DNA of 64,000 nt from Candidatus Iainarchaeum sp. (GTDB lineage Archaea; Iainarchaeota; Iainarchaeia; Iainarchaeales; Iainarchaeaceae), in assembly GCA_043812975.1 (NCBI GenBank), contig JBDRLP010000027.1, positions 52,111 through 116,110 of the forward strand, read 5' to 3'. This document shows, piece after piece, positions 3,458 to 62,386 of the stretch. Numbering within the stretch: position 1 is the stretch's first letter; every line of letters begins with the position of its first letter. The position numbers and the translations under genes were made by a program. The notes under the pieces were generated by a model. The model saw only the letters and a list, made by a program, of their open reading frames with translations, ran no database searches and had not been told where the DNA came from.

Positions 3458-4497
3458 TTTGAATTCCTCATAATCAACAATAAGTCTTTTCCAAGTTTTT
3501 TCTTTTTCACAATTCGTATTTTTAAAGTCTTTTTGAGTTTAAACGCCTTTAAACCCTGTTTAATTTCTCTGTCAGCAATAATAAAAACCAATCTATCAAA
3601 CATTTTTTTTTCTAATAATTCTGAAGCAAGTCTGTTTCCTGGTTCAATCAAAACTGTTTTGATTCCAAAAGAATAAAGCTTTCCAAAAACATCATCCAAA
3701 TCAACCCCCTTCTTTGAATCTTTTACAGTAACAACCTTTGCACCTTTCTCAAGTAACTTTTTGACTTTATTTTTCGGAGCTTTTTTTGTACAGAAAATAA
3801 TTATAGTTCCTTTTTCAGAAAACAATTTAGAATTCAAAGGGATTCTTGCTTTCGAATCAAGCACAATCCGTACAGGATTTCTTCCCTTTCTCACACTCAA
3901 TTTTGGGTTATCTTTCAAAACAGTATTGATTCCAACAAGTATTGCATTATTTTGTGTCCGCAGTTTCTGAACAAATTCTAATGCTTGTTTTCCCGAAATT
4001 TTCTTTTTTTCCCTGTTTCCGAACGAAATAAATCCGTCATTGCTCATAGCAATTTTGATTGTTATTGTTGGGGTTTTAGTCTCACAATAATTTGTTATGT
4101 AGAAGTCATATAGTTTTTTAGCTTCTTTTTCATTTGTAATCTTTACAATAATTCCGTGTTTTCTTAATTCTTTAACTCCGTTTCCTGATTCTTTGTTTGG
4201 GTCTCGCCAAGCAATAAAAACACGCTTAATTCCGGCTTCGATAATAGCTTTTGTACAGGGGGATTGCTTTCCATAATGATTACAAGGTTCAAGTGTCACA
4301 AAAAGGTCTGCTCCTTTGGCCTTTATGCCTGCTTTTTCAAGTGAGGTAGTCTCAGCATGTTTACCCCCAAATTGCTCATGAAACCCTTTTCCAACTACTT
4401 TTCCTTCCTTAACAACAATCGCTCCAACCATTGGATTTGGCCATGCATCTTTTCCTTTTTTGGCTAGTTTAATAGCTTCTGGCATGAAATTTTTCAT
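3454..4497 (-). CDS. ribD: Riboflavin biosynthesis deaminase/reductase RibD (CMP/dCMP-type deaminase plus RibD C-terminal reductase domain)
   Basis: HAE...PCxxC zinc-deaminase motif (HAETTSL...LEPCNHYGKQSPC) followed by a reductase-like C-terminal domain. Confidence 0.7.
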   Translation of the reverse strand: MKNFMPEAIKLAKKGKDAWPNPMVGAIVVKEGKVVGKGFHEQFGGKHAETTSLEKAGIKAKGADLFVTLEPCNHYGKQSPCTKAIIEAGIKRVFIAWRDPNKESGNGVKELRKHGIIVKITNEKEAKKLYDFYITNYCETKTPTITIKIAMSNDGFISFGNREKKKISGKQALEFVQKLRTQNNAILVGINTVLKDNPKLSVRKGRNPVRIVLDSKARIPLNSKLFSEKGTIIIFCTKKAPKNKVKKLLEKGAKVVTVKDSKKGVDLDDVFGKLYSFGIKTVLIEPGNRLASELLEKKMFDRLVFIIADREIKQGLKAFKLKKTLKIRIVKKKKLGKDLLLIMRNSK

Positions 4498-5324
4498 TAA
4501 AATCCTCCGGCTAATAAAAGACCCAGTTCAGGAAAAGCAAATGCCAATAAAACCCCTAAAAAAATAAAAACACCAAATCTAGGAAGATTCCTGTAAACAA
4601 AAATTTCTTTAATTCCTTTTTTTTCAAGTTCTTTTTTTTCTTTTTCCCCATAAACTCCTTTGAAGCCTTTCCCAAATTTTTCCCTTTCTTTTTCACTCAT
4701 AAAATCAAATGCAATTATTTCATCTTCCTCAATGTCTTTCAATTTTATTTTTTTGAGAAAAAATTCTTTTCTGATTCCTTTTTCAAATGCAATAAAAAGA
4801 AGTCCAAAACTAAGAGGCAGTCCGAACATAAGCAAATAATTTATTGAAACAAAACCTGTTTTTGAAAGAACAAACAAATAAACAATCAAAATTACTAGGA
4901 AACCAAGTGCTCTCATTATCCCTTGTTTGTTATACTGAAAGTTAATGCCTTTTCTGAAATATTTTATCATGTAATAAGTTGAAAGAAAAATTATTGAAGT
5001 TAAAGCAGATAAAAGAACCGCTTGAATAATGAAAACGCTATTGTTGAAGAAAGGCAAAGCCAAAGCAATTCCTGTGTAAAGCTTTACATCGCCACCGCCG
5101 ATTTTTCCTGTGTAATAGAGCGCATAACCAATTCCGAAAACTAATAATCCTAAACCTATCCCTAAAAATTCTTGTTCAATAAGGTTCATGAACAAGCCAA
5201 AAACAATTAGCGGGATTGTTATCCAGTCATAAATGTAACCGGTTTTAAAATCAACATAACCCCCGACTCCCGCGGCAAGAAGTATCGCTAGTTGTCTTAG
5301 TAAAATAAGTTCCATGTTTATCAA
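4497..5324 (-). CDS. Archaeal type IV prepilin/preflagellin peptidase (A24 family, PibD/FlaK/EppA-like)
   Basis: Polytopic membrane protein with GGGDVKL motif (second catalytic Asp of the A24 GxGD peptidases) and an early Asp-containing loop; class III signal-peptide substrates are present in the same window. Confidence 0.65.
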   Translation of the reverse strand: MINMELILLRQLAILLAAGVGGYVDFKTGYIYDWITIPLIVFGLFMNLIEQEFLGIGLGLLVFGIGYALYYTGKIGGGDVKLYTGIALALPFFNNSVFIIQAVLLSALTSIIFLSTYYMIKYFRKGINFQYNKQGIMRALGFLVILIVYLFVLSKTGFVSINYLLMFGLPLSFGLLFIAFEKGIRKEFFLKKIKLKDIEEDEIIAFDFMSEKEREKFGKGFKGVYGEKEKKELEKKGIKEIFVYRNLPRFGVFIFLGVLLAFAFPELGLLLAGGF

Positions 5325-6667
5325 CGAATTTTGAATTTTTTCTTTTTAGCAAACATTCCCTGTAACTTTTTCATGTTCATTCCTTTTCCGTCTTCAAACT
5401 TTTTAGCATCAACATTGCTGAATTGCTTGAAAACTTTTTTCATTTTCTTAAAACTTTTTATAAGCTCTCTTACTTCTTCCTGGTTAACTCCTGAGCCTTT
5501 TGCAATCCTCGCAATCCTGCTTTTGTTCATTATATCAGGATTTGTTTTTTCTGGTTTAGTCATCGAATCAATTATAACTCCAAATTTATCCAGTTTTTGT
5601 TCTCCTACTTCTGCCATTTCTTTTGGCAGTTGCTGGCTCATCCCCATCATGTCAAGGACTTTTCCCATTGGCCCCATTTTTCTTGCGGCTTTCATCTGCT
5701 GATAAAAAGTTTCTAAAGTAAATTCTCCTTTCAGGAGTTCTTCAGGATCTAATTGTTCTTCTTCCTGAACTTCTTTTGCTTTCTCAAGCAATGATTGAAG
5801 GTCACCATAACCCATTATTCTGCTTAAATAACGTGTTGCATCAAACTCCTGCAGGTCATCAGGTTTTTCTCCGGTTCCAATAAAATAAACATTTGAATTT
5901 GTTAAATGACAAGCAGCTAATGCACCTCCTCCTTTTGCTGATCCATCCATTTTCGTTATTATAACTCCATTAACGCCGACACTTTTGTGGAATGCTTCAG
6001 CCTGTTTCTTAGCTACTTGTCCGACATCTGAGCCAATCACAAGCCATTTTTCTTTTGCTTTGAAAACATTTTCAATTGCCTTTATTTCTTTTGTGAGTTC
6101 TTCATCCAGAGCACTTCTTCCTGCAGAATCACAAATAACCAAATCATAATCTTTGAATTCTTTTAACCCTTGTTCAATTATTCTCGTTGCACTCTTTTCT
6201 TTTTTATTCCCGTAAAAACCCGCTTTCACTTTTTCTGCAATAGTTTTTAGTTGTTCAAATGCAGCAGGCCTGAAAACATCTGCGGCAATAACCCCTACTT
6301 TTAATCCTCTTTTGATGTACCATTTTGCAAGCTTTCCTGTTGTTGTGGTTTTTCCGCTTCCGAACAATCCAACAAGCAAAATCTTTTCTGGTTTTTCCGG
6401 GGGTTTAACATGCCCTCCAAGAATCTCTGCAAGATTATCGTGTGTGGCTTTAATCACATGCTCTCTTCTGTTAATTCCTTTTGGCAAGTCCTGGAATGCT
6501 TCTTCTTCTATTTTTTTGCTTAATTTTAGAACTAGGTTTATTTCCATGTCAGAACTAATGAGTGCTCTTTGCAGTTCCTTGATTACTTCTTTAACCGCGG
6601 CTTTGTCAATTTCGGAACTGTTTCTCAGTTTTTCCATTGCTTTTCTCAGGTTTTCTCCAAGTCCCAT
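5321..6667 (-). CDS. srp54: Signal recognition particle protein SRP54
   Basis: SRP54 N domain, G domain with GLFGSGKTTTTGKLA and DTAGR-like motifs, M domain with a Met-rich C-terminus. Confidence 0.95.
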   Translation of the reverse strand: MGLGENLRKAMEKLRNSSEIDKAAVKEVIKELQRALISSDMEINLVLKLSKKIEEEAFQDLPKGINRREHVIKATHDNLAEILGGHVKPPEKPEKILLVGLFGSGKTTTTGKLAKWYIKRGLKVGVIAADVFRPAAFEQLKTIAEKVKAGFYGNKKEKSATRIIEQGLKEFKDYDLVICDSAGRSALDEELTKEIKAIENVFKAKEKWLVIGSDVGQVAKKQAEAFHKSVGVNGVIITKMDGSAKGGGALAACHLTNSNVYFIGTGEKPDDLQEFDATRYLSRIMGYGDLQSLLEKAKEVQEEEQLDPEELLKGEFTLETFYQQMKAARKMGPMGKVLDMMGMSQQLPKEMAEVGEQKLDKFGVIIDSMTKPEKTNPDIMNKSRIARIAKGSGVNQEEVRELIKSFKKMKKVFKQFSNVDAKKFEDGKGMNMKKLQGMFAKKKKFKIR

Positions 6668-6741
6668 AGTTATCACTAAAATATAGTAGATTGTATAATA
6701 AAAAAAGAATTAAATAGAGGGGAAAAACCCTCTTTTTGTTA

Positions 6742-13189: not shown

Positions 13190-13816
13190 TTATTCCACTA
13201 CTGTCATTTTTACATTATCGAATATTGTCGAATCGGGCCCCCCATAGAATGTTGGAAATAACCAAACTCTTATGCAATTTGCTCCTGCCGGAACAAGGTA
13301 AGTGAACTCTTTATTTTGCCACGTATTATTGGTTGTGACTTCTCCAGCAGTCCCGGAGTTTCCTGCTCCGCAGCTTCTAACCATAACTAATGCTTCTGTT
13401 GGCCCTCCTACAGTTCCTTGTTTATATGAAAAGTTTACTTTTACTGTTTTTCCATATAGTTCATTCAAATCATAATCAGTCAAAATAATCGCCCCGCCTG
13501 ACGATATAGGAATAATTTCAACTGCATAGTTTCCGTATGGAGTATTAGTGCTCTGTACTGCCGTTACACCAGAGAGTAGGTCCCAGTAATCCGGGTAAGT
13601 TGTAAGCGTCCAAGTTTCGAAGCTTGAGTTTTTAAGAAAATTTGTTGAAACTCCTGCGGCTTCTCGTATTTTGTCGAATGCTGTTGTTGCTGATGTTGTG
13701 ACTTGTGTTTCTCCTGTTCCTGCTATGCTTAGTATTAGTGTGATTACGATTACGGCTACGAGTACTGCTCCGCCTATGAGTAGTAGGTATTCTAGTGCTC
13801 CTTGTGCTTTTTGCAT
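13190..13816 (-). CDS. Type IV pilin-like protein (class III signal peptide) with a C-terminal CBM/jelly-roll-like domain, paralog 1
   Basis: N-terminus MQKAQGALEYLLLIGGAVLVAVIVI... (archaeal prepilin K-A-Q-G/ALEYLL motif plus hydrophobic helix); C-terminal beta-rich domain with NSSFETW...W pattern reminiscent of CBM4/9. Confidence 0.7.
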   Translation of the reverse strand: MQKAQGALEYLLLIGGAVLVAVIVITLILSIAGTGETQVTTSATTAFDKIREAAGVSTNFLKNSSFETWTLTTYPDYWDLLSGVTAVQSTNTPYGNYAVEIIPISSGGAIILTDYDLNELYGKTVKVNFSYKQGTVGGPTEALVMVRSCGAGNSGTAGEVTTNNTWQNKEFTYLVPAGANCIRVWLFPTFYGGPDSTIFDNVKMTVVE

Positions 13817-13860
13817 TTGATTTAGAATTGGTTTTTGAATTATTTATTGGTTTGGGTTTT
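13655..13860. repeat. Conserved 5' block (promoter/5'UTR plus first 55 codons) of tandem pilin gene 1
   Basis: Near-identical nucleotide sequence to 14323..14525 and 15078..15280. Confidence 0.85.
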
Positions 13861-13861
13861 G

Positions 13862-14485
13862 TTATGTTTTAACTAATTTTATATCATCAAAATAAACAGT
13901 TCCGTTTGGAATTGTTGAACCTAAATTGTCCCACTTGATTTCCACAGTAATGGTTGCTCCTGCTGCTGTGCAGGTTACAGGCCCAGAACCATCAGTCCAT
14001 ACATTTGGAAAGCTGCTGGTCATCCAGTCCAGAGATCTGTAACCCTCAGTACAGGAATTACTAAAAGCAATGCGTGCACTTCCGCCTATAATATTTGGTT
14101 TGGTCCATCCTGATAAAGCATATGTATCTCCGGCTGTGACATTAAGTGTTTGGGATGCATAACCATAAGAAGAACCCGAACCATCATGAGTCATTTTCAA
14201 AGAACTGTTTCCAGTTCTGCGGTCATCTGTTGAAGAGGAAACACTTATTCCTCCTCCTGTAAGCCAACTACTCAATCCGCTTTCAAAGCTTCCGTTAGCC
14301 AAGAGATTATTGCTACCGCCGCCTGCGGCTTCTCGTATTTTGTCGAATGCTGTTGTTGCTGTTGTTGTTACTTGTGTTTCTCCTGTTCCTGCTATGCTTA
14401 GTATTAGTGTGATTACGATTACGGCTACGAGTACTGCTCCGCCGATTAAGAGTAGGTATTCTAGTGCTCCTTGTGCTTTTTGCAT
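13862..14485 (-). CDS. Type IV pilin-like protein with a C-terminal CBM-like domain, paralog 2
   Basis: Identical N-terminal 55 aa; C-terminal NGSFESG...W...YFDDIKL pattern typical of CBM_4_9-like beta-sandwich domains. Confidence 0.7.
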   Translation of the reverse strand: MQKAQGALEYLLLIGGAVLVAVIVITLILSIAGTGETQVTTTATTAFDKIREAAGGGSNNLLANGSFESGLSSWLTGGGISVSSSTDDRRTGNSSLKMTHDGSGSSYGYASQTLNVTAGDTYALSGWTKPNIIGGSARIAFSNSCTEGYRSLDWMTSSFPNVWTDGSGPVTCTAAGATITVEIKWDNLGSTIPNGTVYFDDIKLVKT

Positions 14486-14525
14486 TTACTTAGAATTGGT
14501 TTTTGGATTATTTATTGGTTTGGAT
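14323..14525. repeat. Conserved 5' block of tandem pilin gene 2
   Basis: Near-identical to the 5' blocks of the neighbouring paralogs. Confidence 0.85.
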
Positions 14526-15239
14526 TTAGGTCTCTGTTACTTTCACATTATCATAATCAATTGTTTGAGCACCGTAACTTAATAGTCCGATTCCGCCTGT
14601 AGCATGTCCTGTAAAATTATCTTCTCCTGCATAAACCCCGTTTACATATAATTTTACGTTTTGTCCTATTACTACCAGTTTTATGCGGTAAGTTGTTCCG
14701 TTAACCCAAGCCGCTCCGGTTATTGGGTCAGTAAGATCCACAATTTGACCAGTACTCCAATCGTAGAGCCTCCAATAATTCCAGGCATAATACCTGTACA
14801 ACAACATCGAGTTTGTGCTTCCTGAAGTATTAGAATTTCTGTAAACTGCGCCCATATAACTTGTTCCTGAAACTGGGGTAAAATCAAATTCAAAAGTATG
14901 ATCGCCATACGATCCTGTGAGATCCTGTGCAAATTTCCAACCGTCTGCTGTTGCAGCATGCCTGAACTTTCCTCCTGTAACACTCCAGATTATATTTGAC
15001 CCAGTAGTGGTCCAAACAGGATTAGATGTGTAATCCCCATCACTGAAATTATCAAAAAAACTTGCCGTTCCTCCCCCTGCGGCTTCTCGTATTTTGTCGA
15101 ATGCTGTTGTTGCTGATGTTGTGACTTGTGTTTCTCCTGTTCCTGCTATGCTTAGGATTAGTGTGATTACGATTACTGCTACGAGTACTGCTCCGCCTAT
15201 GAGTAGTAGGTATTCTAGTGCTCCTTGTGCTTTTTGCAT
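14526..15239 (-). CDS. Type IV pilin-like protein with a C-terminal concanavalin A-like lectin/LamG-like domain, paralog 3
   Basis: Identical N-terminal 55 aa; C-terminal domain resembles LamG/ConA-like lectin folds (YRIKLVVIGQNVKLYVNGVYAGED...IDYDNVKV). Confidence 0.7.
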   Translation of the reverse strand: MQKAQGALEYLLLIGGAVLVAVIVITLILSIAGTGETQVTTSATTAFDKIREAAGGGTASFFDNFSDGDYTSNPVWTTTGSNIIWSVTGGKFRHAATADGWKFAQDLTGSYGDHTFEFDFTPVSGTSYMGAVYRNSNTSGSTNSMLLYRYYAWNYWRLYDWSTGQIVDLTDPITGAAWVNGTTYRIKLVVIGQNVKLYVNGVYAGEDNFTGHATGGIGLLSYGAQTIDYDNVKVTET

Positions 15240-18427: not shown

Positions 18428-20158
18428 TCATTTTCTGAGCAGCAGTATTGCCAGTATAAGAATAAATATTATTGTTCCACCTGCTACAATAGGAGTTCCC
18501 GGATTATCAAAGTCAAGGTCAAAAGCATCTATTATAGGTTCTACAAGGTTATTTTGTGGTTTTATTTCTTTAACTATTATAGGGTCTTCCTTTTCAGGAA
18601 TTTGTATTTCAAATATCTTTTCATCAGGGGTATTTATTTTCACTATAACCTTTCCCGGCCTGATGTTTCTAACAATGTAAGCAAGGTTTCTTTCTTCAAA
18701 TTCCTGTAAAATAATTTCGTTTTCTTCAACTTGGTTTCCTTCGAATAAAATTTCAACAAAAACCGTGCCTTTTTCATTCCCGAGGTTCTCTAAACTAATT
18801 TTCATTTCCAAATTGTTTTCATTAATAAAAGGACTCACATCTTTTACCCGAATATTTGGACCTTTATTAGTATACTCTTTTGAGGGGATTACCTTTATTG
18901 CATCGCTTATGTTTCCATCAGGCAGCAATAAAATCAAACCATAAGTATAGAAGCCTTCTTCAAAATTTTCATTTGGTGCCCTTGCTTCCCAAGTTATTGT
19001 TTTGGTTTCTTCTTTTTCAAAGAAAATCAGTTTTTTATTATTATCAATACTGAATTTTTCATGAAGCACAAGTTCAATCGGCATTATTACTCTTTCCCCT
19101 GAAACATTTTTTATTTCCGCAGTAATTTCAAAAAGTTCTCCCGGAGGAACCTGCTCAGGTTTGTTCAGATTAACTTCAACTAGATTTTCAAAAAACTCAA
19201 CTGAATTTATTTCAACTCCAGGAAGCTCAAGATTTGTTGTTATGATTATTGGTTCTCTGCTTCTTGTAATAGCAATAAAATCAATTGCTTTGTTTGCGTC
19301 TGTTGTTTTGGCAATTGTAAAATGAGCGGCATCTAAATAACCAGCTTCCCCATAAGTAGAATCAACCCCTATCCACCCTGTTTTTGGAAGGTAAACTTCC
19401 AGCCACCCATGCAGTCCAAATCTTTGACCATCAAAACTTATTCCTGTAATATACTTTGTCGGTATTCCTTTTATTCTTGTAAAAGCCGCGGTTAAATTAG
19501 CAAATTCATCACATACTCCTGCTCTTGAATTATAAGTGTCTTTTGCAGAATAAACAGCATCATAATAATTTTCAAAATCATACTCGATATTGTTGTTTAC
19601 CCATTCTGTTATCTGTCTCACGGTTTCTATCTGAGAATTTGACGTAAATTCCAAAGAAGCTTTGCTTTTCAATTCCTGGTCATCAACCTCTATGAAACCT
19701 GTTGCTTCTTTAAATTCTGCAAATTCTTTAATTTCGTTTTCCAAGTTATAATCTTCTCCAAGACCTAATACAGCTTCTCTTTTTACTCTTGCTTTCCTAA
19801 GAATTTTGAAAGTGTTTGTTTCCGCATAACTGTAAAGGTCACTGATTTTGTATTGCGCATATTTCAATCCTTCCCTTTCAACATACTTGGGTTCTATTCT
19901 TTTTCCCCCAAATTCCAAATATTCTTCTAAACTAATAAGTTCCTGTTTTGTTTCTTCCTGTATTGAAATAAAAAGTAGCTCAAGTTCATCTCCTCTTGTT
20001 ATTGTTCCTGAAAAACTCCCGATTGCTTCAGAGGTTATTGTTACATCCATTGTTTTTACAGTTGAAGGCCTGAACTCTAATGCAAAAACTGATGAAGCAA
20101 ACAGCACAAAAAATGCGATTAAAATAATTTTTTTCATTACAAGAATTAATGTTTTCAA
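18428..20158 (-). CDS. Secreted/membrane-anchored transglutaminase-like cysteine protease domain protein
   Basis: Signal peptide; transglutaminase core motif GVCDEFANLTAAFTRIKGIPTKYITG...HGWLEVYL...GWIGVDST (Cys-His-Asp); C-terminal TM helix. Confidence 0.7.
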   Translation of the reverse strand: MKTLILVMKKIILIAFFVLFASSVFALEFRPSTVKTMDVTITSEAIGSFSGTITRGDELELLFISIQEETKQELISLEEYLEFGGKRIEPKYVEREGLKYAQYKISDLYSYAETNTFKILRKARVKREAVLGLGEDYNLENEIKEFAEFKEATGFIEVDDQELKSKASLEFTSNSQIETVRQITEWVNNNIEYDFENYYDAVYSAKDTYNSRAGVCDEFANLTAAFTRIKGIPTKYITGISFDGQRFGLHGWLEVYLPKTGWIGVDSTYGEAGYLDAAHFTIAKTTDANKAIDFIAITRSREPIIITTNLELPGVEINSVEFFENLVEVNLNKPEQVPPGELFEITAEIKNVSGERVIMPIELVLHEKFSIDNNKKLIFFEKEETKTITWEARAPNENFEEGFYTYGLILLLPDGNISDAIKVIPSKEYTNKGPNIRVKDVSPFINENNLEMKISLENLGNEKGTVFVEILFEGNQVEENEIILQEFEERNLAYIVRNIRPGKVIVKINTPDEKIFEIQIPEKEDPIIVKEIKPQNNLVEPIIDAFDLDFDNPGTPIVAGGTIIFILILAILLLRK

Positions 20159-23227: not shown

Positions 23228-23746
23228 TTGTTCTGTTTTTTGCTTGACGGAACGTTTATATATAAATTAATTGTATTAATTTCAGGTGTAATTGTGAGAA
23301 GACTTATTTATCTTAAAATTGCGGGCAAAGATGTGCATTTACCTAAACTTATAGGTTCTTTCATTATTTTTGCAGCATTTTTGTTATTTGTTCAGGCTTC
23401 AGCTTCTATGTTTGATTCTTGGGATTCAGCTAAGGAAGTTGACAGGTGTTTACAATTAGCTGCTGCTAATGAAGCTAGAGTAGAACCTGATGAAAGCATT
23501 TATCCTGAATGCAGGGAAATGGCAAGAGATTTTTTAGGAATTTCAGTAAGATCTGATCAGGATGGTTTAAGTCTGAGACAATTCTGGGGCTCCTTGTTAG
23601 GGCCGATAGCTTCAGTGTTAATCTGGTTAGCTTTGTTATTTGTTGGTTTAATTCTTTACAGAAGCGGAGAACTTGTTCTTCCTATTGATGAAACAATCAG
23701 GGAAGTTCCTGATGTAACAAGAAGTTTCAAAAAAAGAAAGAAATAA
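23228..23746 (+). CDS. Membrane protein, hypothetical
   Basis: Multiple hydrophobic helices; no family assignment. Confidence 0.4.
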   Translation: MFCFLLDGTFIYKLIVLISGVIVRRLIYLKIAGKDVHLPKLIGSFIIFAAFLLFVQASASMFDSWDSAKEVDRCLQLAAANEARVEPDESIYPECREMARDFLGISVRSDQDGLSLRQFWGSLLGPIASVLIWLALLFVGLILYRSGELVLPIDETIREVPDVTRSFKKRKK

Positions 23747-32131: not shown

Positions 32132-32689
32132 CTATTTCTTTTTGAATGTTAACCACAAAATTACTGGAGGATATGCAATTGCTGAAAGTCCAAAAAGGAG
32201 ATATAAAATAGGTATTAAAGCGCTTGATAGGGAAGGAGAAAAAGAAGTAAATAGAAAAATTACCGGAATAAATCCAATTACAATTAAGGCGATAAATTTC
32301 AGGAATTTTAAGAAAACTGGCCAAAATTTTTCTTTTTGGCTAAATTTGAGCCAACCAAAAGTTAGGATAGGCAATATTATTGAACCTAATAAAAAAAAGA
32401 CGTACAAAAAGGGGGCTATGTCAAGTAATTGGGTTAATGGTCCAAATGAAATCATAAGGGCAATACTAAAGAATAGTATAGTTACAAGAATAGGGCTTAT
32501 TACTTTTACTAAGAGTTGATGTTCAGTTTTTAGTCCGTCTAAAATCTTATTATATAAAAAATAACCAAAAAGAAACATGGAATATACAAAAAGAGGGATT
32601 ATAAAAATAATCCAAATAACGATTACTACAAGTGAATTAAAGGCGCCCCCAAAAGCAACTTGACCTCTTTGTTCATCTAAAATGTTCAT
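32132..32689 (-). CDS. Integral membrane protein, hypothetical
   Basis: 5-6 TM helices. Confidence 0.4.
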   Translation of the reverse strand: MNILDEQRGQVAFGGAFNSLVVIVIWIIFIIPLFVYSMFLFGYFLYNKILDGLKTEHQLLVKVISPILVTILFFSIALMISFGPLTQLLDIAPFLYVFFLLGSIILPILTFGWLKFSQKEKFWPVFLKFLKFIALIVIGFIPVIFLFTSFSPSLSSALIPILYLLFGLSAIAYPPVILWLTFKKK

Positions 32690-32817: not shown

Positions 32818-33246
32818 ATGAAGCCTTTAGTAAAAAAGTTTTTTCAGGGTTTAATGGGTGATTTCTTAATTGCTATTGGTTTAGTGATTGGATACGCTAT
32901 TGCGTTTTTCCTTCTCATTTTTGCAATAATGCTTATGCATCAATATATCGGGCCAGATTTCGTATTTATTTTTTGGCCTGTGCTGTTGCTTTTGCCTATC
33001 CTTGCGGTATTTTTGATTTTTAAATTCATAACTAACTCATGGTTTAGAGGGCTTGCCTTAATCGCTATTTCTTTGGAACTATTTTTGACTAAAATAATGT
33101 TTGGAGTGACTTCAGAAGGACTTGGGGCGACAATTAGCGATGCGGTTTCCTATGTGATGGTAGGAATTTTCTTTTTAGCAGGTCTATTATACTTGTTATC
33201 GGCAATTTTCAAATTTTTAAAATTCTCAGTTGGCAGCAATAAATAA
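32818..33246 (+). CDS. Integral membrane protein, hypothetical
   Basis: 4 TM helices. Confidence 0.4.
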   Translation: MKPLVKKFFQGLMGDFLIAIGLVIGYAIAFFLLIFAIMLMHQYIGPDFVFIFWPVLLLLPILAVFLIFKFITNSWFRGLALIAISLELFLTKIMFGVTSEGLGATISDAVSYVMVGIFFLAGLLYLLSAIFKFLKFSVGSNK

Positions 33247-36093: not shown

Positions 36094-36482
36094 GCAGATC
36101 GCCTTTTTATTATGAGCACTCCCCAAAACTATTTTCAGGAAGGATTTCTTTAATAAAATCCGATTTAGATTATTTGAATAGTAAAGGAATCAAAAAATTA
36201 GTCTTATTACAGGATGTGAATGATAATATATTGAATGCTCTTAGAACTGCCGGTTTTGCCGTTAAAGTTTTTCATTTAGGTACAAATCCCCCTTATGATT
36301 CAGAAAAATTAAGAGTGGTTTCTCGCGCTATGGCTTCTGCTAGAGTTTCTTTGCAAAAAAATGAAGGAGTGGCTGTTTTATGCAATCAAGGATTTCGTTC
36401 ATTTGACATTTGTAAAGAAATTCATAATCCTATTGACAGGAAAAGATTAACCAAAACTCGAATTAGGCGGTTGAGAAAATGA
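36090..36482 (+). CDS. Phosphatase-like domain protein (degenerate Cys-based P-loop)
   Basis: VAVLCNQGFRS resembles a CX4-5R phosphatase/rhodanese-like loop; translationally coupled between the Zn-ribbon gene and herA. Confidence 0.35.
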   Translation: MSRSPFYYEHSPKLFSGRISLIKSDLDYLNSKGIKKLVLLQDVNDNILNALRTAGFAVKVFHLGTNPPYDSEKLRVVSRAMASARVSLQKNEGVAVLCNQGFRSFDICKEIHNPIDRKRLTKTRIRRLRK

Positions 36483-39400
36483 CCAAAAACGAAGAAATAG
36501 GAACAGTAATAAGCACTCCAGATGGTCCTTCTCCGAGTGCTTTGGATTTTGTTGTTTATTCAGGAACACTTCACAGAGGAATGTTTGTTGAATTAGATTA
36601 TGCTGAAGGCACTCTTGTTGCTTTGGTTACTGATGTTGTTAAAACAAATCGTTATTTTGAAAGAGTTGAATCAGTAAAGGAATTCGAATCCTCAGGAACA
36701 AAATTATTTGAACAATTCCCTACTCATGAATGGGAATTCCTTTTAGCAAAAACAAGACCGCTTGGAGTTTACAATAAAGGGATGATTAAGCGTTCTAGTT
36801 TTCCTCCTTCTCCTGGGGCTAAAGTAAGGGTTGCTTCCAAAGAAACTCTTGAAAACTTTTTAGGTTTAGATTTGGAAAAAGGTTTAATGCTTGGAGAAAT
36901 TGAACATCACGATGTTTCAGTAAAATTGAACATGTCAAGATTATTCCAGAAACATTTAGCTATTTTGGCTATGAGTGGAGCAGGTAAGTGTACAAGTTTT
37001 GATGCTGAAATATTGCTTGAAAATAAGGTGCAGGTAAAAATTGGCGAATTAGTTGATTCAATATTAGAGAAAAATAAAAGAGTTGAAGATGGTGTTGAAT
37101 TTTGGGAAGGGGATTTGGATCTAAAAACTTATTCTTTTAATGGAGAAAAAATTGTTCCTGCGGAGGTCAAAGGAGTTTACCGAAGGAAGTCTCCGCATGA
37201 ATTGATTAAGGTCACAACTCGGAGTGGTAGGATTTTGAAGGTTACTCCTGAACACTTAATCCCTATGTTTAGTGGTTCTATTGAGTGGTTGCATGCAAAG
37301 GATTTGGTTAAAAAAAACTACTTGATTTTTCCGAGGATAAATTGGAGTGGTTCTGAGCAAGTAATGGATTTTTCTTCAGTTGTTGGCGAGAAAACCATAG
37401 TTCGCGGTGGTTTTGCGGAGTCAAAGAAGTCCGGTAAAAAGGTTAGGTTATTGCAGAGTGTTGACAAGGATTTTGTCAGATTGTTTGCTTATCTTTTGGC
37501 GGAAGGACATAATACTTGCGGTTCTCAAATTTGGTTTAGTAACGAAGATGAGTTTGTACGAAAGGATTTTTCGAAGCTGGTTTTTGATAAGTTTGGTTCT
37601 CGTGTCAGTGTAGCTAAACATGGGGGCGATTTGATTTTTTATAATAAGTTGTTGGCTCAGGCTCTTTCAAAGAAAGGGTTTACTAATTCTAGTTGGACTA
37701 AATTTGTTCCTCCTGAGATTTTGCGGAGCAGACGTGAAGTTTTGCTTTCTTTTCTTTCTGTTTTTATTGATTGTGACGGGCATATAAACAAAAGCAAGTC
37801 TGAGTTGGAGATAACTTTAGCGAGTAAAAAACTTATTTTTGGTATTGAAGAAATCCTCACAAAGCTGGGTATTGTTTCTTTTAGAGGGATCAAAAAGACT
37901 GATGGCAAGGTATATCAAAGATTGTTTGTTAGAGGGGCGGAATTGAAAAAGCTGAAGGATCTCGATCTTTTGATTGGTTATAAAAAGAAGGCTCTTGAGA
38001 AATGGATTGCCTCTAAAAACAACCCTAATGTTGATGTTGTTCCCAATTTACATTCTCATTTGTTTGAGTTGTTGTCTTTGTTGAGAATGCCTCAGCCACA
38101 GGCTGAGTCGTCAGGCATTAACAATTATCTTTACCGCCGAGATAACCCTTCTAGGGAAAATTTGAGTGTTTTAATTTCTATTTTTGAGCGAAGATGTGTT
38201 GAGGTAGAAAAGGCAACTGAGGACGCTTATACTCTTTATAAAAGCATTCCTAAAGTTAGCGAAGAAGATGCTTTAGTGGTTGTTCAGGAAGCTTATTCCA
38301 GTGGTTTGGATTTTAATAAAATCTCTTCAGGAAGTGGTGTTTCAAAAACTACTGCAAGAAGGGTTGTTAGAGGTATCACTTCTCCAAAAAGTAGTGTTTT
38401 TTCTTTGGCAAAAAACATTTCTCAGTCTAGGTATGCTGAATTTGGATTCGTTGAAAACTTCGACGGGAATTCAGCTTTAACTTCTATTAAGGAAATTTGT
38501 GAGAGGCTTGGTCATGAGACACAGACTTTTTGTGTTTCAAATGGGGTTTACAAGAATTTTCTATATTCTCATTCAAAAGATAGGGGTGTTGCTGACCATT
38601 CTATTGTACTCAAGTTGTCAGAGTCTCTTTGTGAAATTGCGAGAAAATCTGAGAAAAATTTGGGCTTAGCTAAGGGAATTATTTTTGATTTGAAGAAAGC
38701 GATTGATTTGAATGCTTTTTTTGACGAGATTGTGAAAGTTGAAAAAGTTCCTTCTGAAAACGAGTTTGTTTATGATCTTTCTGTTGATAATTCTAGTTTT
38801 GTTGCTAATAATTTGTTGATTCATAATAGCTACTTAACTTCCGTTCTCTTTGAAGAACTTTTAGAAAGAAAAAAAGAAGACGGAAGACTGGCTTTGATTG
38901 TAATGGATACTCATGGAGAATATAGGAATTTTGCTGAACCAGTAAAAGATTCAAAGAGTAAAGATTTTTCATCCAAAACAAGATTTGTTAAAGCAAGCGA
39001 AATTAGCATCGGTGTTCCTAAGCTTTCTATCGGAATGCTTTCCATTATGATTCCTGGATTATCAGGGCCGCAGAAGAGAGACCTTGCGAGAGTTCTTGAA
39101 AAATTAAGAAGAGAAATGAAAGACGGTTTAGGCCCCTATGATTTTGGTGCTGTAAAATCTGAAATATTTAAGGATGAGGAAATGAAAGAGTCAACAAAAT
39201 TGGCTTTGACTGGATGGATAATTTCATTAGAACAGTTGAAACTTTTCGGAAAAACTGATAATCCAAGTATTAATGATCTTGTAAAACCAGGACAACTTAC
39301 AATTGTTGATTTGAGTGATGTCATTGAAATGAAAAAGAAACAGATTATTGTTTCTTATTTTGCTTCGAAACTTTTCTTTGAAAGGCGCCAAAAAAGAATT

Positions 39401-39859
39401 GCTCCTTTTTCTCTTGTTTTGGAAGAAGCACATCAGTATTGCCCTGAAGGCACTTCAAAAGAAGGGGCTATTTCCAGAGGTATTATTGAAACAATTGCAA
39501 GGGAAGGAAGAAAGTTCGGTGCTTCAATTTGTTTAATTTCTCAGAGGCCGATTAATCTTTCAACAACTGCATTAAGTCAATGCGGCACTCATATAATTCT
39601 CAGAGTAACAAATCCTTATGATCTTGATCACATTGGTAAAAGCAGTGAAGGTCTTGACAGGCGTTCGCTGGACATGATTACTTCTCTAAGAACGGGAGAA
39701 GCTCTTCTTGTTGGTGAAGCCGTAAATTACCCTACTTTTTTCAAGGTTCGAAAAAGGACTTCTCAGGATTCTATTCATGAAAAGTCTCTGGAGGAGGCTT
39801 CTGTTGAGTTTGAGGAAATAAAGGAAGCATCACAGAAGGATATTGAAGATTTGATGTAA
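36479..39859 (+). CDS. herA: HerA-type hexameric DNA translocase/helicase, interrupted in its Walker A motif by a 613-aa intein
   Basis: HAS-barrel N-terminus; Walker A AILAMSGAGK|C...intein...HN|S; Walker B LVLEEAH; arginine-finger region; the extein is about 513 aa. Confidence 0.85.
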   Translation: MTKNEEIGTVISTPDGPSPSALDFVVYSGTLHRGMFVELDYAEGTLVALVTDVVKTNRYFERVESVKEFESSGTKLFEQFPTHEWEFLLAKTRPLGVYNKGMIKRSSFPPSPGAKVRVASKETLENFLGLDLEKGLMLGEIEHHDVSVKLNMSRLFQKHLAILAMSGAGKCTSFDAEILLENKVQVKIGELVDSILEKNKRVEDGVEFWEGDLDLKTYSFNGEKIVPAEVKGVYRRKSPHELIKVTTRSGRILKVTPEHLIPMFSGSIEWLHAKDLVKKNYLIFPRINWSGSEQVMDFSSVVGEKTIVRGGFAESKKSGKKVRLLQSVDKDFVRLFAYLLAEGHNTCGSQIWFSNEDEFVRKDFSKLVFDKFGSRVSVAKHGGDLIFYNKLLAQALSKKGFTNSSWTKFVPPEILRSRREVLLSFLSVFIDCDGHINKSKSELEITLASKKLIFGIEEILTKLGIVSFRGIKKTDGKVYQRLFVRGAELKKLKDLDLLIGYKKKALEKWIASKNNPNVDVVPNLHSHLFELLSLLRMPQPQAESSGINNYLYRRDNPSRENLSVLISIFERRCVEVEKATEDAYTLYKSIPKVSEEDALVVVQEAYSSGLDFNKISSGSGVSKTTARRVVRGITSPKSSVFSLAKNISQSRYAEFGFVENFDGNSALTSIKEICERLGHETQTFCVSNGVYKNFLYSHSKDRGVADHSIVLKLSESLCEIARKSEKNLGLAKGIIFDLKKAIDLNAFFDEIVKVEKVPSENEFVYDLSVDNSSFVANNLLIHNSYLTSVLFEELLERKKEDGRLALIVMDTHGEYRNFAEPVKDSKSKDFSSKTRFVKASEISIGVPKLSIGMLSIMIPGLSGPQKRDLARVLEKLRREMKDGLGPYDFGAVKSEIFKDEEMKESTKLALTGWIISLEQLKLFGKTDNPSINDLVKPGQLTIVDLSDVIEMKKKQIIVSYFASKLFFERRQKRIAPFSLVLEEAHQYCPEGTSKEGAISRGIIETIAREGRKFGASICLISQRPINLSTTALSQCGTHIILRVTNPYDLDHIGKSSEGLDRRSLDMITSLRTGEALLVGEAVNYPTFFKVRKRTSQDSIHEKSLEEASVEFEEIKEASQKDIEDLM
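36989..38827 (+). mobile_element. Intein (Hint domain plus LAGLIDADG homing endonuclease) inside herA
   Basis: Starts with Cys right after GAGK, ends ...VANNLLIHN followed by Ser; LAGLIDADG-like blocks LFAYLLAEGHN and LSVFIDCDGHIN. Confidence 0.8.
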
Positions 39860-46853: not shown

Positions 46854-48248
46854 TTAGTACTCCTCAAATTCTTCTATTCCTTTCAAATAAGTTGAGAACC
46901 ATGCTTTGAATTCTTTATTTTTCCTGTATTTTTCAAGCACTTCCTTATCACTCAAAACTTTTGCTTTTTTGTTTAATGCTTTTCTGATTCCTGATTTTTC
47001 AGTTTTCTTCAGTTTTTTAAGGAGCTCTTTGAGATACTCCGTTGCTCGATCGTGTTCTCTTTCAATTTCAACAACCCATCTTCCTTTTTCAATCCGCGGA
47101 CCGCTAAGTGCTTTCTTATGTGCTTTCAAAAACTGTTCAGAATGTTCTTCATTAGTAACATGAGGTCCTATTCTTTTCTGGGCTTTTTCCAATCTATTAG
47201 CTTCCAAATCAAAAACCAGGATAATTTCTTTTTCCTCATCACTCCAAGAAGCATTTCTTAAAATCCTGAAATCCTTTTGTTCTAATGCAGAAATAATTTT
47301 CTTTCCTAATCTCCGTATCTGCCCCCACAAAATATCTGGAAGTTCCTTTGCAGGATAACCAATCTGAATAATAATGAGCCCTTCTTTTTCAACTAGTTTT
47401 TTTGCTTTTCCTGAATCAAGAGTTTTTGTTTTTGCTCCGAAGAAAAATTTAAGAGAAGGTTTTTTCAGAAAAGCTCTTGAGGCAGCAACGATTCGAGCAT
47501 ATTGATTTACACTCAATGCAGCTGCAACATTCCTGTTTGAATCAACTGGATCAATTATAATAAGCGAAGAATCAAATTTCTTCAAAGCTTCTTTTTTACT
47601 CAGTTGTTTTTCAATATCTAGTATTTCATGTTCCTGCCACTTTGCCATTGCAGATATTGTTTTCTTAAAAGAACCATAATTCACAATTAATAATTCTGTC
47701 ACATATCCCGGAACCGAACTAACTTTCAGATCAGCACCATAAGCTTTAATCCCTTTCAAAAATTGTTTCAGTAATCTTACTTCATTACACAATTTTGGAG
47801 TTAATTTTTTTTGTAAGTATTTGTTGTGAAAACTTGTTCTGTCAACAGCACTTCTTAATTTTTGGGTATCATTTATTGAATAAGCAGGAACTATTTCCAC
47901 ATCAAAACCTTTAATGACTCCGCGAATGTAAGGGTGTTCGGAATAAGCTTTTTCCCATTTGTGGCCGCGGAAAACGTTTTTTCCGATTCTCAGGCCTTCT
48001 TTTTCAAACTCTTCGCGTGAAATTTTTTCAGGAAAAAACACAAAAATATCAAGGTCATTATCACCGCGTAAATGCGTATTTCTTGCATTACTCCCTACTA
48101 ATTCTACTCCAAGGTGGTTTCCTTTGATTTTTGTTATTTTTGTTATTATTTCGGTTGCTAATGCTTCCTGTTTAATTCTTTCGGGTTTTGAAGGGGTTAT
48201 TTTTTTGGTTACTTTGTTTAATATATTGTTCATCTTAACCACGGTCAC
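46854..48248 (-). CDS. cca: CCA-adding enzyme (archaeal class I tRNA nucleotidyltransferase)
   Basis: GSNARNTHLRGDNDLDIFVFFP nucleotidyltransferase motif and class I CCA architecture. Confidence 0.85.
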   Translation of the reverse strand: MTVVKMNNILNKVTKKITPSKPERIKQEALATEIITKITKIKGNHLGVELVGSNARNTHLRGDNDLDIFVFFPEKISREEFEKEGLRIGKNVFRGHKWEKAYSEHPYIRGVIKGFDVEIVPAYSINDTQKLRSAVDRTSFHNKYLQKKLTPKLCNEVRLLKQFLKGIKAYGADLKVSSVPGYVTELLIVNYGSFKKTISAMAKWQEHEILDIEKQLSKKEALKKFDSSLIIIDPVDSNRNVAAALSVNQYARIVAASRAFLKKPSLKFFFGAKTKTLDSGKAKKLVEKEGLIIIQIGYPAKELPDILWGQIRRLGKKIISALEQKDFRILRNASWSDEEKEIILVFDLEANRLEKAQKRIGPHVTNEEHSEQFLKAHKKALSGPRIEKGRWVVEIEREHDRATEYLKELLKKLKKTEKSGIRKALNKKAKVLSDKEVLEKYRKNKEFKAWFSTYLKGIEEFEEY

Positions 48249-48290
48249 GTTTTATATAGTATAAATCTGTACTATAAATAGCTATTCTAA

Positions 48291-49868
48291 GTGGTTTTAA
48301 TGGCATTTCAGTTTGCGGAAAAAAAAGGAAACAAGATTGATTCTTATGGTCAAACGGTTATCCATGAAGGATTCCCGTTTTTCTTTTATGATGTAAAAGA
48401 ACCAAAGTTTAATGAAGAAGAAAATATCATGAAGGAATCTTTGATTAATCTTATTATGGGCCGCTGGAGTTTTGATGAGGTTCAGGGGCAGCTGGAAAAA
48501 CTTTTTTCAAAACAGTTTATGGAGCAGTTCAGGGAAAAAATAATCAAGCCGATAACTTATAGCGGTGCGATGGAATATTTGTTGCCAACTGATGATTATA
48601 ATACTTTAAAATTAACTCTCATAACTTTGTTTAAGGAATTTTTACCGGTTGTAAAAAATCATTCTTTATTAGCAGACAAAATCCTTGGGGACTCTATCGG
48701 TTACGGGAAAATAAATCCTTTTGTTATGGATGAAAGTTTAGAAGAAGTCATGGTTAATTCTTATGACAAGAACGTTTTTGTTTTTCACAAAAAGTACGGC
48801 CATTGTAAAACTAATATAGATTTTTCAAACAAAAAAGCCCTTGATAATTTGCTGCAAAAAATTGCTCACACTATAGGAAAAAAGTTTGATGCTGACAATC
48901 CTTTATTGGACGCACGTCTTCCTGACGGTAACAGAGCTAATGCAACTTTTGCTTATGTAACTCCATTTGGCCCAAGCCTTACAATCAGGAAATTTTCCAG
49001 TGTTCCTCTTAGTATTGTTGATTTAATTTCCAATAATACGATTTCAAGTGAATTGGCAGCATTTCTTTGGGTTATGGTTGAGGGTATGGGTGTTGAGCCA
49101 ATGAATCTTATTGTTACCGGCGGTTCTGGTTCAGGAAAAACAACTACTTTGAATGCTTTGACTGCTTTTGTAAGATACCCTGAAAGAATTATTTCCATTG
49201 AAGATACGCTTGAACTGCGTTTGTTGGGGCGGCAAAATTGGGTTCAGATGGAATCCAGGCCAGCAATGAAAGGACAGGAAGGTGTTACCATGGATGACTT
49301 GTTAAAAAATGCTATGAGAATGAGGCCTGATCGCATTATTGTTGGGGAAGTAAGAGGAAAAGAAGCAGAAACTCTCTTTGTTGCAATGGACACCGGCCAT
49401 AAAGGATCAATGGGAACATTGCATAGTAATTCTGCCAAAGAAATGCTTCTAAGATTAAAATCAGAACCTATGGGTGTTCCTGATTCTTTAATTCCTTTAC
49501 TTAATCTTATTATTGTTCAGTACAGGCTTTATGTTAAAGGGAAAGGCATCGAGAGAAGAGTAATATCTGTTACTGAGGTAAGTTCTATGGATAATCATGC
49601 TTTGCTCAGTAATGTGTATGAGTGGGACCGCGGAACTGATTTTGTGAAAAGAACCGATGTTCCGATGAAACTTATGGAGACCTTATCTGAAAAAACATTA
49701 AAAACTAAAAAAGAGGTTGAAATGGAGATTAATGTTAGAAAAAGGATTCTTGAATGGATGATGAAGAACGATATCCATTTCCAGCCTGAAGTAGAAGTGG
49801 TTGTTCAGCAGTATTATTATAATCCTGAAGCTCTTTTAGAAAAAGTTCTTGCTGAAGATTCTCAATAA
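48291..49868 (+). CDS. Type II/IV secretion-system ATPase (FlaI/PilB/TadA-like) - putative pilus assembly ATPase
   Basis: Walker A LIVTGGSGSGKTTTLNAL, Asp box, Walker B, His box (GHKGSMGTLHSNSAKE). Confidence 0.8.
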   Translation: MVLMAFQFAEKKGNKIDSYGQTVIHEGFPFFFYDVKEPKFNEEENIMKESLINLIMGRWSFDEVQGQLEKLFSKQFMEQFREKIIKPITYSGAMEYLLPTDDYNTLKLTLITLFKEFLPVVKNHSLLADKILGDSIGYGKINPFVMDESLEEVMVNSYDKNVFVFHKKYGHCKTNIDFSNKKALDNLLQKIAHTIGKKFDADNPLLDARLPDGNRANATFAYVTPFGPSLTIRKFSSVPLSIVDLISNNTISSELAAFLWVMVEGMGVEPMNLIVTGGSGSGKTTTLNALTAFVRYPERIISIEDTLELRLLGRQNWVQMESRPAMKGQEGVTMDDLLKNAMRMRPDRIIVGEVRGKEAETLFVAMDTGHKGSMGTLHSNSAKEMLLRLKSEPMGVPDSLIPLLNLIIVQYRLYVKGKGIERRVISVTEVSSMDNHALLSNVYEWDRGTDFVKRTDVPMKLMETLSEKTLKTKKEVEMEINVRKRILEWMMKNDIHFQPEVEVVVQQYYYNPEALLEKVLAEDSQ

Positions 49869-50459: not shown

Positions 50460-50502
50460 ATAAAGTCCCTCTTTTTGGTCTCTTATAGGCTTTTTTGACC
50501 AA

Positions 50503-61549: not shown

Positions 61550-61830
61550 TCTTTCACCTTGCTTTTAACAGTTGGAGTAGTTCCACTAAACTCAAATAAT
61601 TCTTTGCAGTTTACTGTTGGTCCTGCATTTTCATTATTAGATGTGCTGAGAGTTTCATTAGTATAAAAAACAATTAATGCATTATCTGTTGCTTTTGCAC
61701 TCAACAGAACTTGTGGCGCTTCTCCGTTTGAAGCAAGATTAGAAATCGCCAATCCTGAAAAAAGAGCTATGATTACAACCATTGCCAGAATTGCATCTGT
61801 ACTGAATATTACTCCTTTCATGTCAACCAC
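61534..61830 (-). CDS. Pilin-like protein with class III signal peptide (minor pilin 3)
   Basis: MVDMKG/VIFSTDAILAMVVIIALF N-terminus; overlaps the neighbouring genes. Confidence 0.55.
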   Translation of the reverse strand: MVDMKGVIFSTDAILAMVVIIALFSGLAISNLASNGEAPQVLLSAKATDNALIVFYTNETLSTSNNENAGPTVNCKELFEFSGTTPTVKSKVKECRAT

Positions 61831-62384: not shown

Positions 62385-62386
62385 TA

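Follow-up and report, generated by a model that had tools for sequence, protein, structure and literature searches.

Type IV pilus genes of a Candidatus Iainarchaeum contig: the missing platform and the stand-alone ATPase

How can a pilus be built from a set of genes that lacks the membrane platform on which its motor would act? This question is raised by a stretch of 64,000 nucleotides of contig JBDRLP010000027.1 (positions 52,111 to 116,110; G+C 34%) from the archaeon Candidatus Iainarchaeum sp. (assembly GCA_043812975.1), the whole of which is referred to here as the window. The window encodes a prepilin peptidase (pep1), a secretion ATPase of the FlaI/PilB family (ATPase1), three tandem pilins and an operon of four minor-pilin-like genes, and no platform protein. 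An initial annotation had described these genes as a dispersed pilus system, complete apart from a platform that would be either outside the window or replaced. The reading preferred here, with a probability of roughly 80%, is that the window holds peripheral genes of an ordinary Tad/Epd-like archaeal type IV pilus of a tiny Diapherotrites (DPANN) archaeon, whose platform gene lies about ten genes past the edge of the window, and that ATPase1 is a paralogue of the platform-linked motor.

The platform gene and the core locus

The absence of a platform gene from the window was borne out by Pfam models, by a T2SSF profile and by a tblastn search with the genome's own T2SSF protein, P0192, none of which gave a match in the window. 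Its polytopic open reading frames (ORFs) are those of pep1, HtpX, a Na/Ca exchanger and three small unknown proteins, and a T2SSF match was found in none of them. The profile was seeded with a Haloferax mediterranei pHM500 gene, which stands in a layout of ATPase, T2SSF and small genes, and was iterated and searched against all ORFs of 80 loci (designated L and a number) from a species-genome scan with an alignment of the ATPase. It recovered 99 T2SSF ORFs in these 80 loci, with none among the ORFs of the window or of the window-type loci.

The platform gene is present on the same contig. An alignment of DPANN T2SSF proteins retrieved P0192 (MFH1391370.1, 377 aa), recorded as 'type II secretion system F family protein [Candidatus Diapherotrites archaeon]', which carries a single T2SSF domain (PF00482, 69.6 bits, cutoff 25.2). 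P0192, the window ATPase P0001 and the minor pilin P0121 are all recorded on a single contig of 149,730 bp, and P0001, a protein of a 'Candidatus Diapherotrites archaeon' metagenome-assembled genome (MAG), is 100% identical to ATPase1. The accessions are MFH1391342 for ATPase1, MFH1391355 for mp170, the fourth minor-pilin-like protein, and MFH1391370 for the T2SSF protein. Since the 13 genes that separate ATPase1 from mp170 in the window equal the difference between their accessions, accession order can be taken as gene order; the accession of P0192 falls 15 genes after that of mp170, and the last gene of the window, JAB (63513..63872), corresponds to about accession ...360. The shared contig record and the order of the accessions thus place the platform gene about ten genes past coordinate 64,000. 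The check proposed at the outset, a search for a FlaJ/TadC/PilC homologue in the rest of the genome, is answered by P0192 on the same contig, and of the two options left by the initial annotation, a platform outside the window is retained and a replaced platform is not. The platform appeared to be missing because the window boundary cuts the contig, which is an effect of the window's edge and not a trait of the organism, and flags of this kind raised on a 64-kb slice need to be checked against the rest of the contig. The related locus L009, followed past the equivalent right edge, holds only TctA, JAB and PGM before its contig ends.

The surroundings of such a platform gene can be read in relatives. 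In GCA_974426465.1, contig CDDAGG010000009.1 (275,280 bp) carries both a window-type ATPase and a core module. The ATPase, at about 168.8-170.4 kb, is 62% identical to ATPase1 and has the same CCA/LigT/TYW3/unk/ELP3 neighbors, while the core module (about 141-147 kb) and four small genes together occupy about 141-154 kb, some 25 kb away. The order of the module is ThrRS (threonyl-tRNA synthetase), a second ATPase (ATPase2, 599 aa), two T2SSF genes (381 and 312 aa), a 43-aa ORF, an 89-aa Class_IIIsignal pilin, a 56-aa ORF, a peptidase with A24 and Arc_PepC domains (375 aa) and, at the end, proteins of 165 and 122 aa with sub-threshold Class_IIIsignal matches. These are followed by DUF2101, a 120-aa ORF, TctA, a glycosyltransferase (GT2), JAB, PGM and four small genes homologous to the window operon, and the TctA/JAB/PGM/four-gene order agrees with the right end of the window and with L009. 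The 381-aa T2SSF protein is 61% identical to P0192, so that the platform gene and the window-type ATPase have diverged equally between the two genomes. Besides the contig of the window, a window-type ATPase and this T2SSF family occur together on two contigs, the one of 275,280 bp just described and one of 73,993 bp.

An ATPase gene followed immediately by two T2SSF genes also occurs in three Diapherotrites/Iainarchaeum MAGs (L033, L042, L047). In alignments with the FlaJ/UpsF models, the first of the two proteins, of the P0192 type, falls on the N-terminal half and the second on the C-terminal half. Both single-domain genes were seen in L094, L033, L042 and L047, and in the window's genome the first of them (P0192) only. 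By comparison with these four relatives, P0192 would be the first of a split TadB/TadC-like platform pair, with ATPase2 before the pair and a short major pilin, further small pilins and a second A24 peptidase (pep2) after it. The four-gene operon of the window would then form the distal end of a loose core pilus locus. The set of genes in the window is consequently not complete apart from its platform, as had been claimed, since the platform of the relatives comes with a different ATPase, a short pilin and a second peptidase. Their description as scattered also seems overstated: the minor-pilin operon appears to be the tail of the loose core locus, and in archaea, peptidases and major pilins encoded on their own are documented as the usual case (PMC4858521, PMC6668835).

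The same comparison bears on a reading in which all these genes form one dispersed pilus system, with ATPase1 as its sole motor and a platform that is distant or replaced by an unrelated membrane protein. Such a system would be consistent with the lack of any T2SSF gene within 10 kb of ATPase1, which holds for the window and for at least 13 related genomes, and pilins and peptidase are indeed encoded in trans; moreover, ATPase2 of the window's own genome is deduced from relatives and not directly seen. A T2SSF gene nevertheless lies on the same contig, a different ATPase stands immediately before this T2SSF family in 4/4 contexts (L033, L042, L047, L094), and one relative carries both ATPases on a single contig. 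No unknown polytopic protein was found conserved beside ATPase1 that could take the place of the platform, and the sole-motor arrangement is judged improbable.

Several ORFs had been considered as divergent platforms, namely 32132..32689, 32818..33246 and 23228..23746 in the window, 5628-6434 in L010, 14159-14854 in L011 and 8661-9218 in L008. None gave a T2SSF signal, and one of them is M50-like. A gene for a 582-aa protein in L010 (15775..17523, minus strand) was also rejected as a platform, since its product is a secreted, pilin-like protein whose N-terminus is class-III-like (KAQAFSVFWLLVAAIVAAVIL) and which also has cysteine-rich linkers and a HEIGH zinc-metalloprotease motif; it may represent a protease displayed on a pilin anchor.

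ATPase1 and the platform-linked ATPase

ATPase1 (48291..49868, plus strand) is the product of a monocistronic gene and belongs to the hexameric secretion ATPases of the FlaI/PilB/GspE family (525 aa; 522 aa in the NCBI record). Its ORF contains GGSGSGKTTTLNAL, read directly, and its match to Pfam T2SSE (PF00437; E=4.8e-44, 150.9 bits) upholds the PilB/FlaI-type assignment of the initial annotation. Among structures in the PDB its closest relatives are GspE of A. fulgidus (2OAP, 4e-81), CpaF (3e-61) and FlaI (8e-60), with VirB11 far behind (7e-26), an outcome of the pilus type and not the clustering with VirB11 types that had been named as the finding that would speak against a pilus ATPase. 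The best NCBIfam model is FlaI (296 bits, compared with 150 bits for VirB11), yet the score lies below the cutoff of 550 of the FlaI equivalog NF058587, and genes of the archaellum (archaellins, FlaH, FlaF/G, FlaCDE/X) were seen neither in the window nor in any locus. In an alignment reaching down to 30% identity, the columns of the Walker A, Asp box, Walker B and His box motifs are invariant (G277-G278..G282-K283-T284, E304-D305-T306, D347..G352-E353-V354-R355 and H370..H378). Judged by these motifs, ATPase1 is a catalytically intact member of the FlaI/PilB family.

The gene resides in a conserved neighborhood composed of a CCA-adding enzyme (minus strand), the ATPase (plus), LigT/TYW3 (minus), sometimes a metallophosphatase, the unk283 gene (plus) and ELP3, with Pelota, RLI and Asn synthase near the block. 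This arrangement is kept in at least 13 other genomes, whose ATPases are 43-67% identical to ATPase1 (loci L001, L004, L007, L010, L011, L012 and L014-L019, with L028 showing wider spacing), and no T2SSF gene occurs within 8-10 kb of the ATPase in any of them or in the window. A scan of viral contigs with ATPase1 yielded no relatives. The genes for the ATPase and TadC have been described as one module in archaea (PMC4858521), and pilins and peptidases encoded in trans are normal, so that the detachment of ATPase1 is the sole unusual point of this system. The block at 46854..53056, with its equivalents in L001-L012, is strongly conserved in itself and comprises the CCA-adding enzyme, LigT, TYW3, ELP3, a Holliday-junction resolvase, Pelota and RLI.

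A neighborhood of this kind could be taken to place ATPase1 outside pilus biology altogether, in the translocation of proteins or nucleic acids or in an RNA-related role. Its neighbors are invariably the CCA-adding enzyme, LigT, TYW3, ELP3, Pelota and RLI, it has no adjacent membrane partner, and a related archaeal ATPase family (MJ1533-like) has been predicted to act in RNA or DNA metabolism (PMC4858521), which offers a precedent. ATPase1 is, however, a full-length enzyme of the FlaI/GspE/PilB type and not fused to PIN or KH domains, and gene order in small DPANN genomes need not mirror function. In three other DPANN loci (L046, L026, L038), moreover, unk283 and ELP3 are followed, after a gap of 2-3 kb, by an ATPase and two T2SSF genes. 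This layout indicates that the proximity of a pilus ATPase to unk283-ELP3 is an old linkage, and the location of ATPase1 looks like the relic of a pilus locus. A role outside the pilus is therefore regarded as very improbable, and the window-type ATPase gene may be a remnant left at the old pilus locus.

The product of unk283 (50503..51354, plus strand, probable start M26) is a surface protein with a signal peptide, a beta-rich ectodomain and a C-terminal transmembrane helix. Relatives at the same position are 35-51% identical, and the gene is always paired with ELP3 and, in Diapherotrites as in several further DPANN lineages, lies within a few kb of an ATPase of the pilus type; its counterparts, surface proteins of about 260 aa, include L046 3037-3813, L018 12847-13641 and L095 6389-7201. 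It matches no Pfam or NCBIfam family and may be a pilus-associated or S-layer-like component. Its assignment to arCOG02884/pfam07760, a 'putative secretion system component' (PMC5898192), was dropped, as no PF07760 match was obtained.

Within GCA_974426465.1, ATPase1 and ATPase2 share 38% identity. Identity between ATPase2 and the platform-linked ATPases of L033 and L042 is 61-65%. Neighbor-joining (NJ) trees were calculated from 372 conserved-core columns of the loci in hand, with no reference Epd/Tad sequences included. In these trees the ATPase2 group, formed by the platform-linked Diapherotrites sequences, has a bootstrap value of 98/100 and the inner ATPase1 group one of 78/100, and ATPase2 groups with module ATPases of Methanobacteriaceae and Hadarchaeota. 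A Micrarchaeota-labelled ATPase (L044 9869-11440) falls in the platform-linked clade and is itself without T2SSF, with ELP3 upstream and Pelota downstream, which suggests that detachment from the platform occurred more than once.

Because the platform of the relatives carries its own ATPase, ATPase1 is probably a paralogue and not the cognate partner of the platform. Most probably it acts in trans, as a second motor, on the same platform. A rival reading makes ATPase1 a dedicated second motor for something other than extension, either retraction or disassembly on the same platform, as an analogue of PilT, or the drive of a separate filament of lectin-tailed pilins. Bacterial PilB and PilT work on a common PilC platform, and as a rule pilT is not linked to pilBC. 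That precedent would suit a distinct platform-less clade which has been conserved across at least 13 other genomes with all of its catalytic motifs invariant, which coexists with a complete ATPase2-platform module on one contig of a relative, and which in the window's genome and in a third relative has a T2SSF gene on the same contig. Two published accounts (PMC11178785; PMC4858521) also state that archaea have no PilT homologue, and yet retract their pili. The score of ATPase1 against pilT_fam, on the other hand, is 63 bits with a cutoff of 319, showing no likeness to PilT beyond the shared core, and the enzyme keeps a full-length N-terminal domain, as in assembly ATPases. The lectin-tailed pilins, furthermore, share their N-terminus with the 89-aa pilin of the core locus and need no extra motor. 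A dedicated non-extension motor is thus considered unlikely.

A doubtful extension of this idea is that platform-less monocistronic ATPases of the FlaI/PilB family constitute a previously undescribed clade in Diapherotrites and some Micrarchaeota-labelled genomes, present beside a complete module and possibly serving a non-extension role such as retraction or remodelling on the split TadB/C platform. If true, a PilT-like function would have its first counterpart in archaea. As archaea are reported to lack PilT, a stand-alone ATPase may bear on the retraction of their pili and on switching between sets of pilins. The literature on DPANN and Diapherotrites (PMC4858521, PMC6393860, PMC8561730, PMC5905446, PMC9938205) mentions type IV pili and describes neither the location of the platform nor a stand-alone ATPase. 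The new element, which is mildly novel, is the conserved platform-less second ATPase, the pilus system itself being ordinary.

ATPases of 790-880 aa (P0038, P0040, P0043, P0046, P0048, P0052) are 42-45% identical to ATPase1, and one of them, P0046 (L008 6001-8625), has no adjacent T2SSF gene and adjoins an M50-like membrane protein and a 1057-aa beta-propeller protein. Pilus ATPase genes encoding 700-1190 aa were encountered at L047 1238-4243, L021 26-3592 and L048 9548-12823 and as P0073; the last has a precomputed intein domain (PF14890), and inteins seem to be common in the pilus ATPase family.

Pilins and prepilin peptidases

When the window was scanned in six frames for [KR][GA] and a subsequent hydrophobic stretch close to the N-terminus, the three tandem pilins and the four small genes, seven in all, were returned; beyond these, the scan hit only internal starts within polytopic proteins and two cases that do not convince. 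By direct reading as well as by the scan, 7/7 proteins begin with a short charged leader that ends in G or A and leads into a hydrophobic helix of about 20 residues. Characterized archaeal pilins are cleaved after G or A. By analogy, cleavage would be expected after the same residues here (KKG/QLSI, QKA/QGALEY, the slash marking the site), and not after Q, as the initial annotation had written it.

The three tandem pilins (13190..15239, minus strand) had been proposed as major-pilin-like adhesins, and their assignment as pilins has held: all three pass the Pfam Class_IIIsignal model PF04021 (about 26 bits, cutoff 23.7) and carry lectin-like tails. The PilA-like pilin of 208 aa (13190..13816; Class_IIIsignal 26 bits) has a C-terminal domain resembling a carbohydrate-binding module (CBM), with a weak match to CBM_4_9, and that of 207 aa (13862..14485; 25.9 bits) has a CBM_4_9 carbohydrate-binding domain (35.6 bits, cutoff 25.9). 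The third, of 237 aa (14526..15239; 26 bits), has a concanavalin/3-keto-disaccharide-hydrolase-like domain, whose 3keto-disac_hyd match of 26.4 bits is slightly below the cutoff of 26.8. A repeat search revealed a cassette of 212 nt in three copies on the minus strand (13647-13858, 14316-14527 and 15070-15281) with 86-94% nucleotide identity, each spanning the upstream region, signal peptide and hydrophobic polymerization segment of one pilin gene. Over their first ~55 residues the three proteins differ by a single conservative change, S/T at position 42, and beyond this stretch the tails diverge. Residues 5-25 are invariant between them and the 89-aa pilin of the relative's core module. These repeats suggest one polymerization module fused to interchangeable carbohydrate-binding heads, which would share a filament with the short pilin, and the common N-terminus implies that the lectin-tailed pilins need no separate motor. 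A transglutaminase-core protein (576 aa; 18428..20158, minus strand) lies 3 kb from the pilin cluster and adjoins HtpX and LemA. Surface transglutaminase-like peptidases have been linked recurrently to archaeal pilus loci (PMC4858521).

The four small genes (61037..62770) are consecutive and overlapping, as had been described, and direct reading and the six-frame scan agree on their class-III-like N-termini: MKKGQLSIDLLL, (M)EKQKTKGQIFSLDFL, MKGVIFSTDAIL and MKGFISAWVAV. In each, a short leader rich in K/R ends in G, and about 20 hydrophobic residues come next. On the minus strand, gene 1 (62387..62770, 127 aa, MKKG/QLSIDLLLAIFAMVLFLIL) gave no match in a Pfam search and has a syntenic homologue in L094 (27% identity, E=3e-5). 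Gene 2 (61818..62420, 188-200 aa, likely start 62390 or 62384, ..KTKG/QIFSLDFLIAMTLAVLAIGML) is 31% identical to a syntenic 199-aa gene of L094 (E=5e-15) and has matches in L001, L002, L004 and L005, while gene 3 (61534..61830, 95-98 aa, MKG/VIFSTDAILAMVVIIALF) is 31% identical to a syntenic gene of L004 (E=2e-10). Gene 4 encodes mp170 (61037..61549, 166-170 aa, ABIH20_03535, MFH1391355.1, MKG/FISAWVAVGAIALLIFV), for which only three homologues were found among 5.8 billion proteins. Its AlphaFold2 model (pLDDT, the predicted local distance difference test score, 69; pTM, the predicted template modeling score, 0.60) has a 51-residue N-terminal helix (residues 10-60) and a five-stranded beta-sheet. 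For the paralogous small genes of the core locus in the relative, PF04021 scores stay below the threshold (17-22 bits), and the operon of the window is weakly similar to a small class-III gene of the core locus (E=4e-4). The four genes are thus best termed pilin-like, on the strength of their N-terminal motif, an architecture known from a model of moderate confidence, the operon structure and synteny with the core locus.

The peptidase pep1 (4497..5324, minus strand, 275 aa) was correctly called a GxGD A24 peptidase: its ORF contains KIGGGDVKL, read directly, and scores 45.2 bits against Pfam Peptidase_A24 (PF01478, cutoff 26.5). Together with the catalytic motifs, this identifies it as a stand-alone prepilin peptidase of the A24B (FlaK/PibD) type. 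A Kyte-Doolittle scan indicates a polytopic protein with about seven hydrophobic segments. The catalytic residues are D25 and D79 (GGGD), and D25, G77, G78, D79 and K81 are invariant in an alignment of 15 sequences. A profile of 15 orthologues had a single significant entry in the PDB, the preflagellin peptidase FlaK of M. maripaludis (3S0X, E=9.6e-8), with an alignment that runs through both Asp motifs; these motifs align also to those of the second A24 peptidase, pep2. No match to the NCBIfam FlaK and EppA equivalogs was obtained at E<=0.1, so that pep1 is a member of the A24B family and an orthologue of neither characterized enzyme. A single-sequence AlphaFold2 model (pLDDT 50) was too poor for use. 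By homology, pep1 would cut the class III signal peptides of the window's pilins.

A metagenome scan provided 22 relatives of pep1 with 33-59% identity. SRP54 lies directly upstream on the same strand in 9/22 of these loci (10 counting a fragment), the same gene follows the peptidase in 15/22, and a pilus ATPase or platform was found in the flanks of none of the 22. Thus, pep1 is a conserved stand-alone gene amid housekeeping genes, in accordance with reports that stand-alone prepilin peptidases are the norm in archaea (PMC4858521) and with the handling of the prepilin peptidase as a 'loner' (PMC6668835). In the window, SRP54 and pep1 (4497..6676) are on the same strand with a 4-nt overlap, an order kept in 9-10 metagenome loci of the L096-L112 set. 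An intein or an insertion is suggested by the SRP54 ORF of L105, which measures 1058 aa, and by that of L096, which is divided into two.

Several points weigh against the reading of these genes as the periphery of an ordinary Tad/Epd-like system with a second ATPase. The position of the platform gene depends on the 149,730-bp contig record and on accession order, not on DNA read past 64,000, and ATPase2, the second T2SSF gene and pep2 are assigned to the window's genome from relatives. Contact between ATPase1 and the platform is a proposal from homology, and the neighbors of ATPase1 are all tRNA and translation genes. The ATPase trees are distance-based only, and they leave the ATPase1 clade with an unstable deep boundary (33-46/100), involving L019, L028 and an Altiarchaeota sequence. 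The four small genes show no PF04021 match at E<=0.1 and match no pilin family in Pfam or NCBIfam, and a Foldseek search of the PDB with the mp170 model, itself of moderate confidence, returned nothing at E<1e-3, the top entries being NTF2-like folds.

Relation to characterized pilus systems

The Epd pili of Methanococcus maripaludis and the bacterial Tad (Flp) pilus (CpaF/TadA, TadB, TadC) have been united in an 'Epd-like/Tad' clade (PMC6668835), and the present system resembles them most. As in that clade, the platform of the relatives is split into two genes with one T2SSF domain each, and the major pilin is very short (89 aa in the relative), a combination which amounts to the signature of the clade (PMC6668835). 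The class III signal with Q at +1, the good scores of the ATPase against TadA/CpaF models and structures, and the A24 peptidase with an Arc_PepC domain in the core locus are further likenesses. Unlike Epd/Tad, the peptidases fall below the EppA and FlaK equivalog cutoffs, there is an extra stand-alone ATPase paralogue, some pilins have large lectin-like tails, and the core locus is broken by the housekeeping genes TctA, JAB and PGM.

The PilB3-PilC3 system of Haloferax volcanii with PilA1-6 (clade 2; PMC4858521) is likewise a module supplemented by several PilA-type pilins that are encoded in trans and share a hydrophobic N-terminus. A faint PilB3_C domain match was found on an orthologue of ATPase1, and stand-alone peptidase and pilin genes are the norm there as well. 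In Haloferax, however, the ATPase gene lies beside that of PilC, and a single protein with two domains forms the platform, as in H. mediterranei (L013), whereas in the present system no platform gene adjoins ATPase1 and the platform is a split one. The bacterial type IVa pilus, with PilB, PilT and PilU on one PilC, offers a parallel in that several paralogous ATPases accompany a single platform locus and one ATPase is encoded apart. As ATPase1 is not of the PilT family, this likeness concerns gene arrangement only and is silent on the direction of action. Like the FlaI-FlaJ pair of the archaellum, both ATPases have FlaI as their best NCBIfam model (296 and 305 bits) and the T2SSF genes weakly match the ArlJ/FlaJ models, yet all scores are far below the cutoffs (FlaI 550; FlaJ 400-570), and the other archaellum genes were seen neither in the window nor in any locus.

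By homology with characterized archaeal and Tad systems, a sequence of steps can be proposed. The A24 peptidases would remove the short positively charged leader after G or A, and an ATPase hexamer on the TadB/C-like platform would then extract the pilins and polymerize them through their shared hydrophobic helix. The four minor pilins would probably prime or cap the filament, which the lectin-tailed pilins may decorate as interchangeable adhesins. Taken together, these results give a coherent picture of the adhesion apparatus of a Diapherotrites archaeon, which would comprise a split-platform Tad/Epd-like core, pilins with swappable carbohydrate-binding heads and two peptidases. The Diapherotrites make their living through contact with other cells or with surfaces.

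A further observation concerns a HerA/DUF87 helicase of 1126 aa (36479..39859, plus strand) in the window, which is split by an intein with a LAGLIDADG homing-endonuclease domain, its orthologues in relatives being about 512 aa long.

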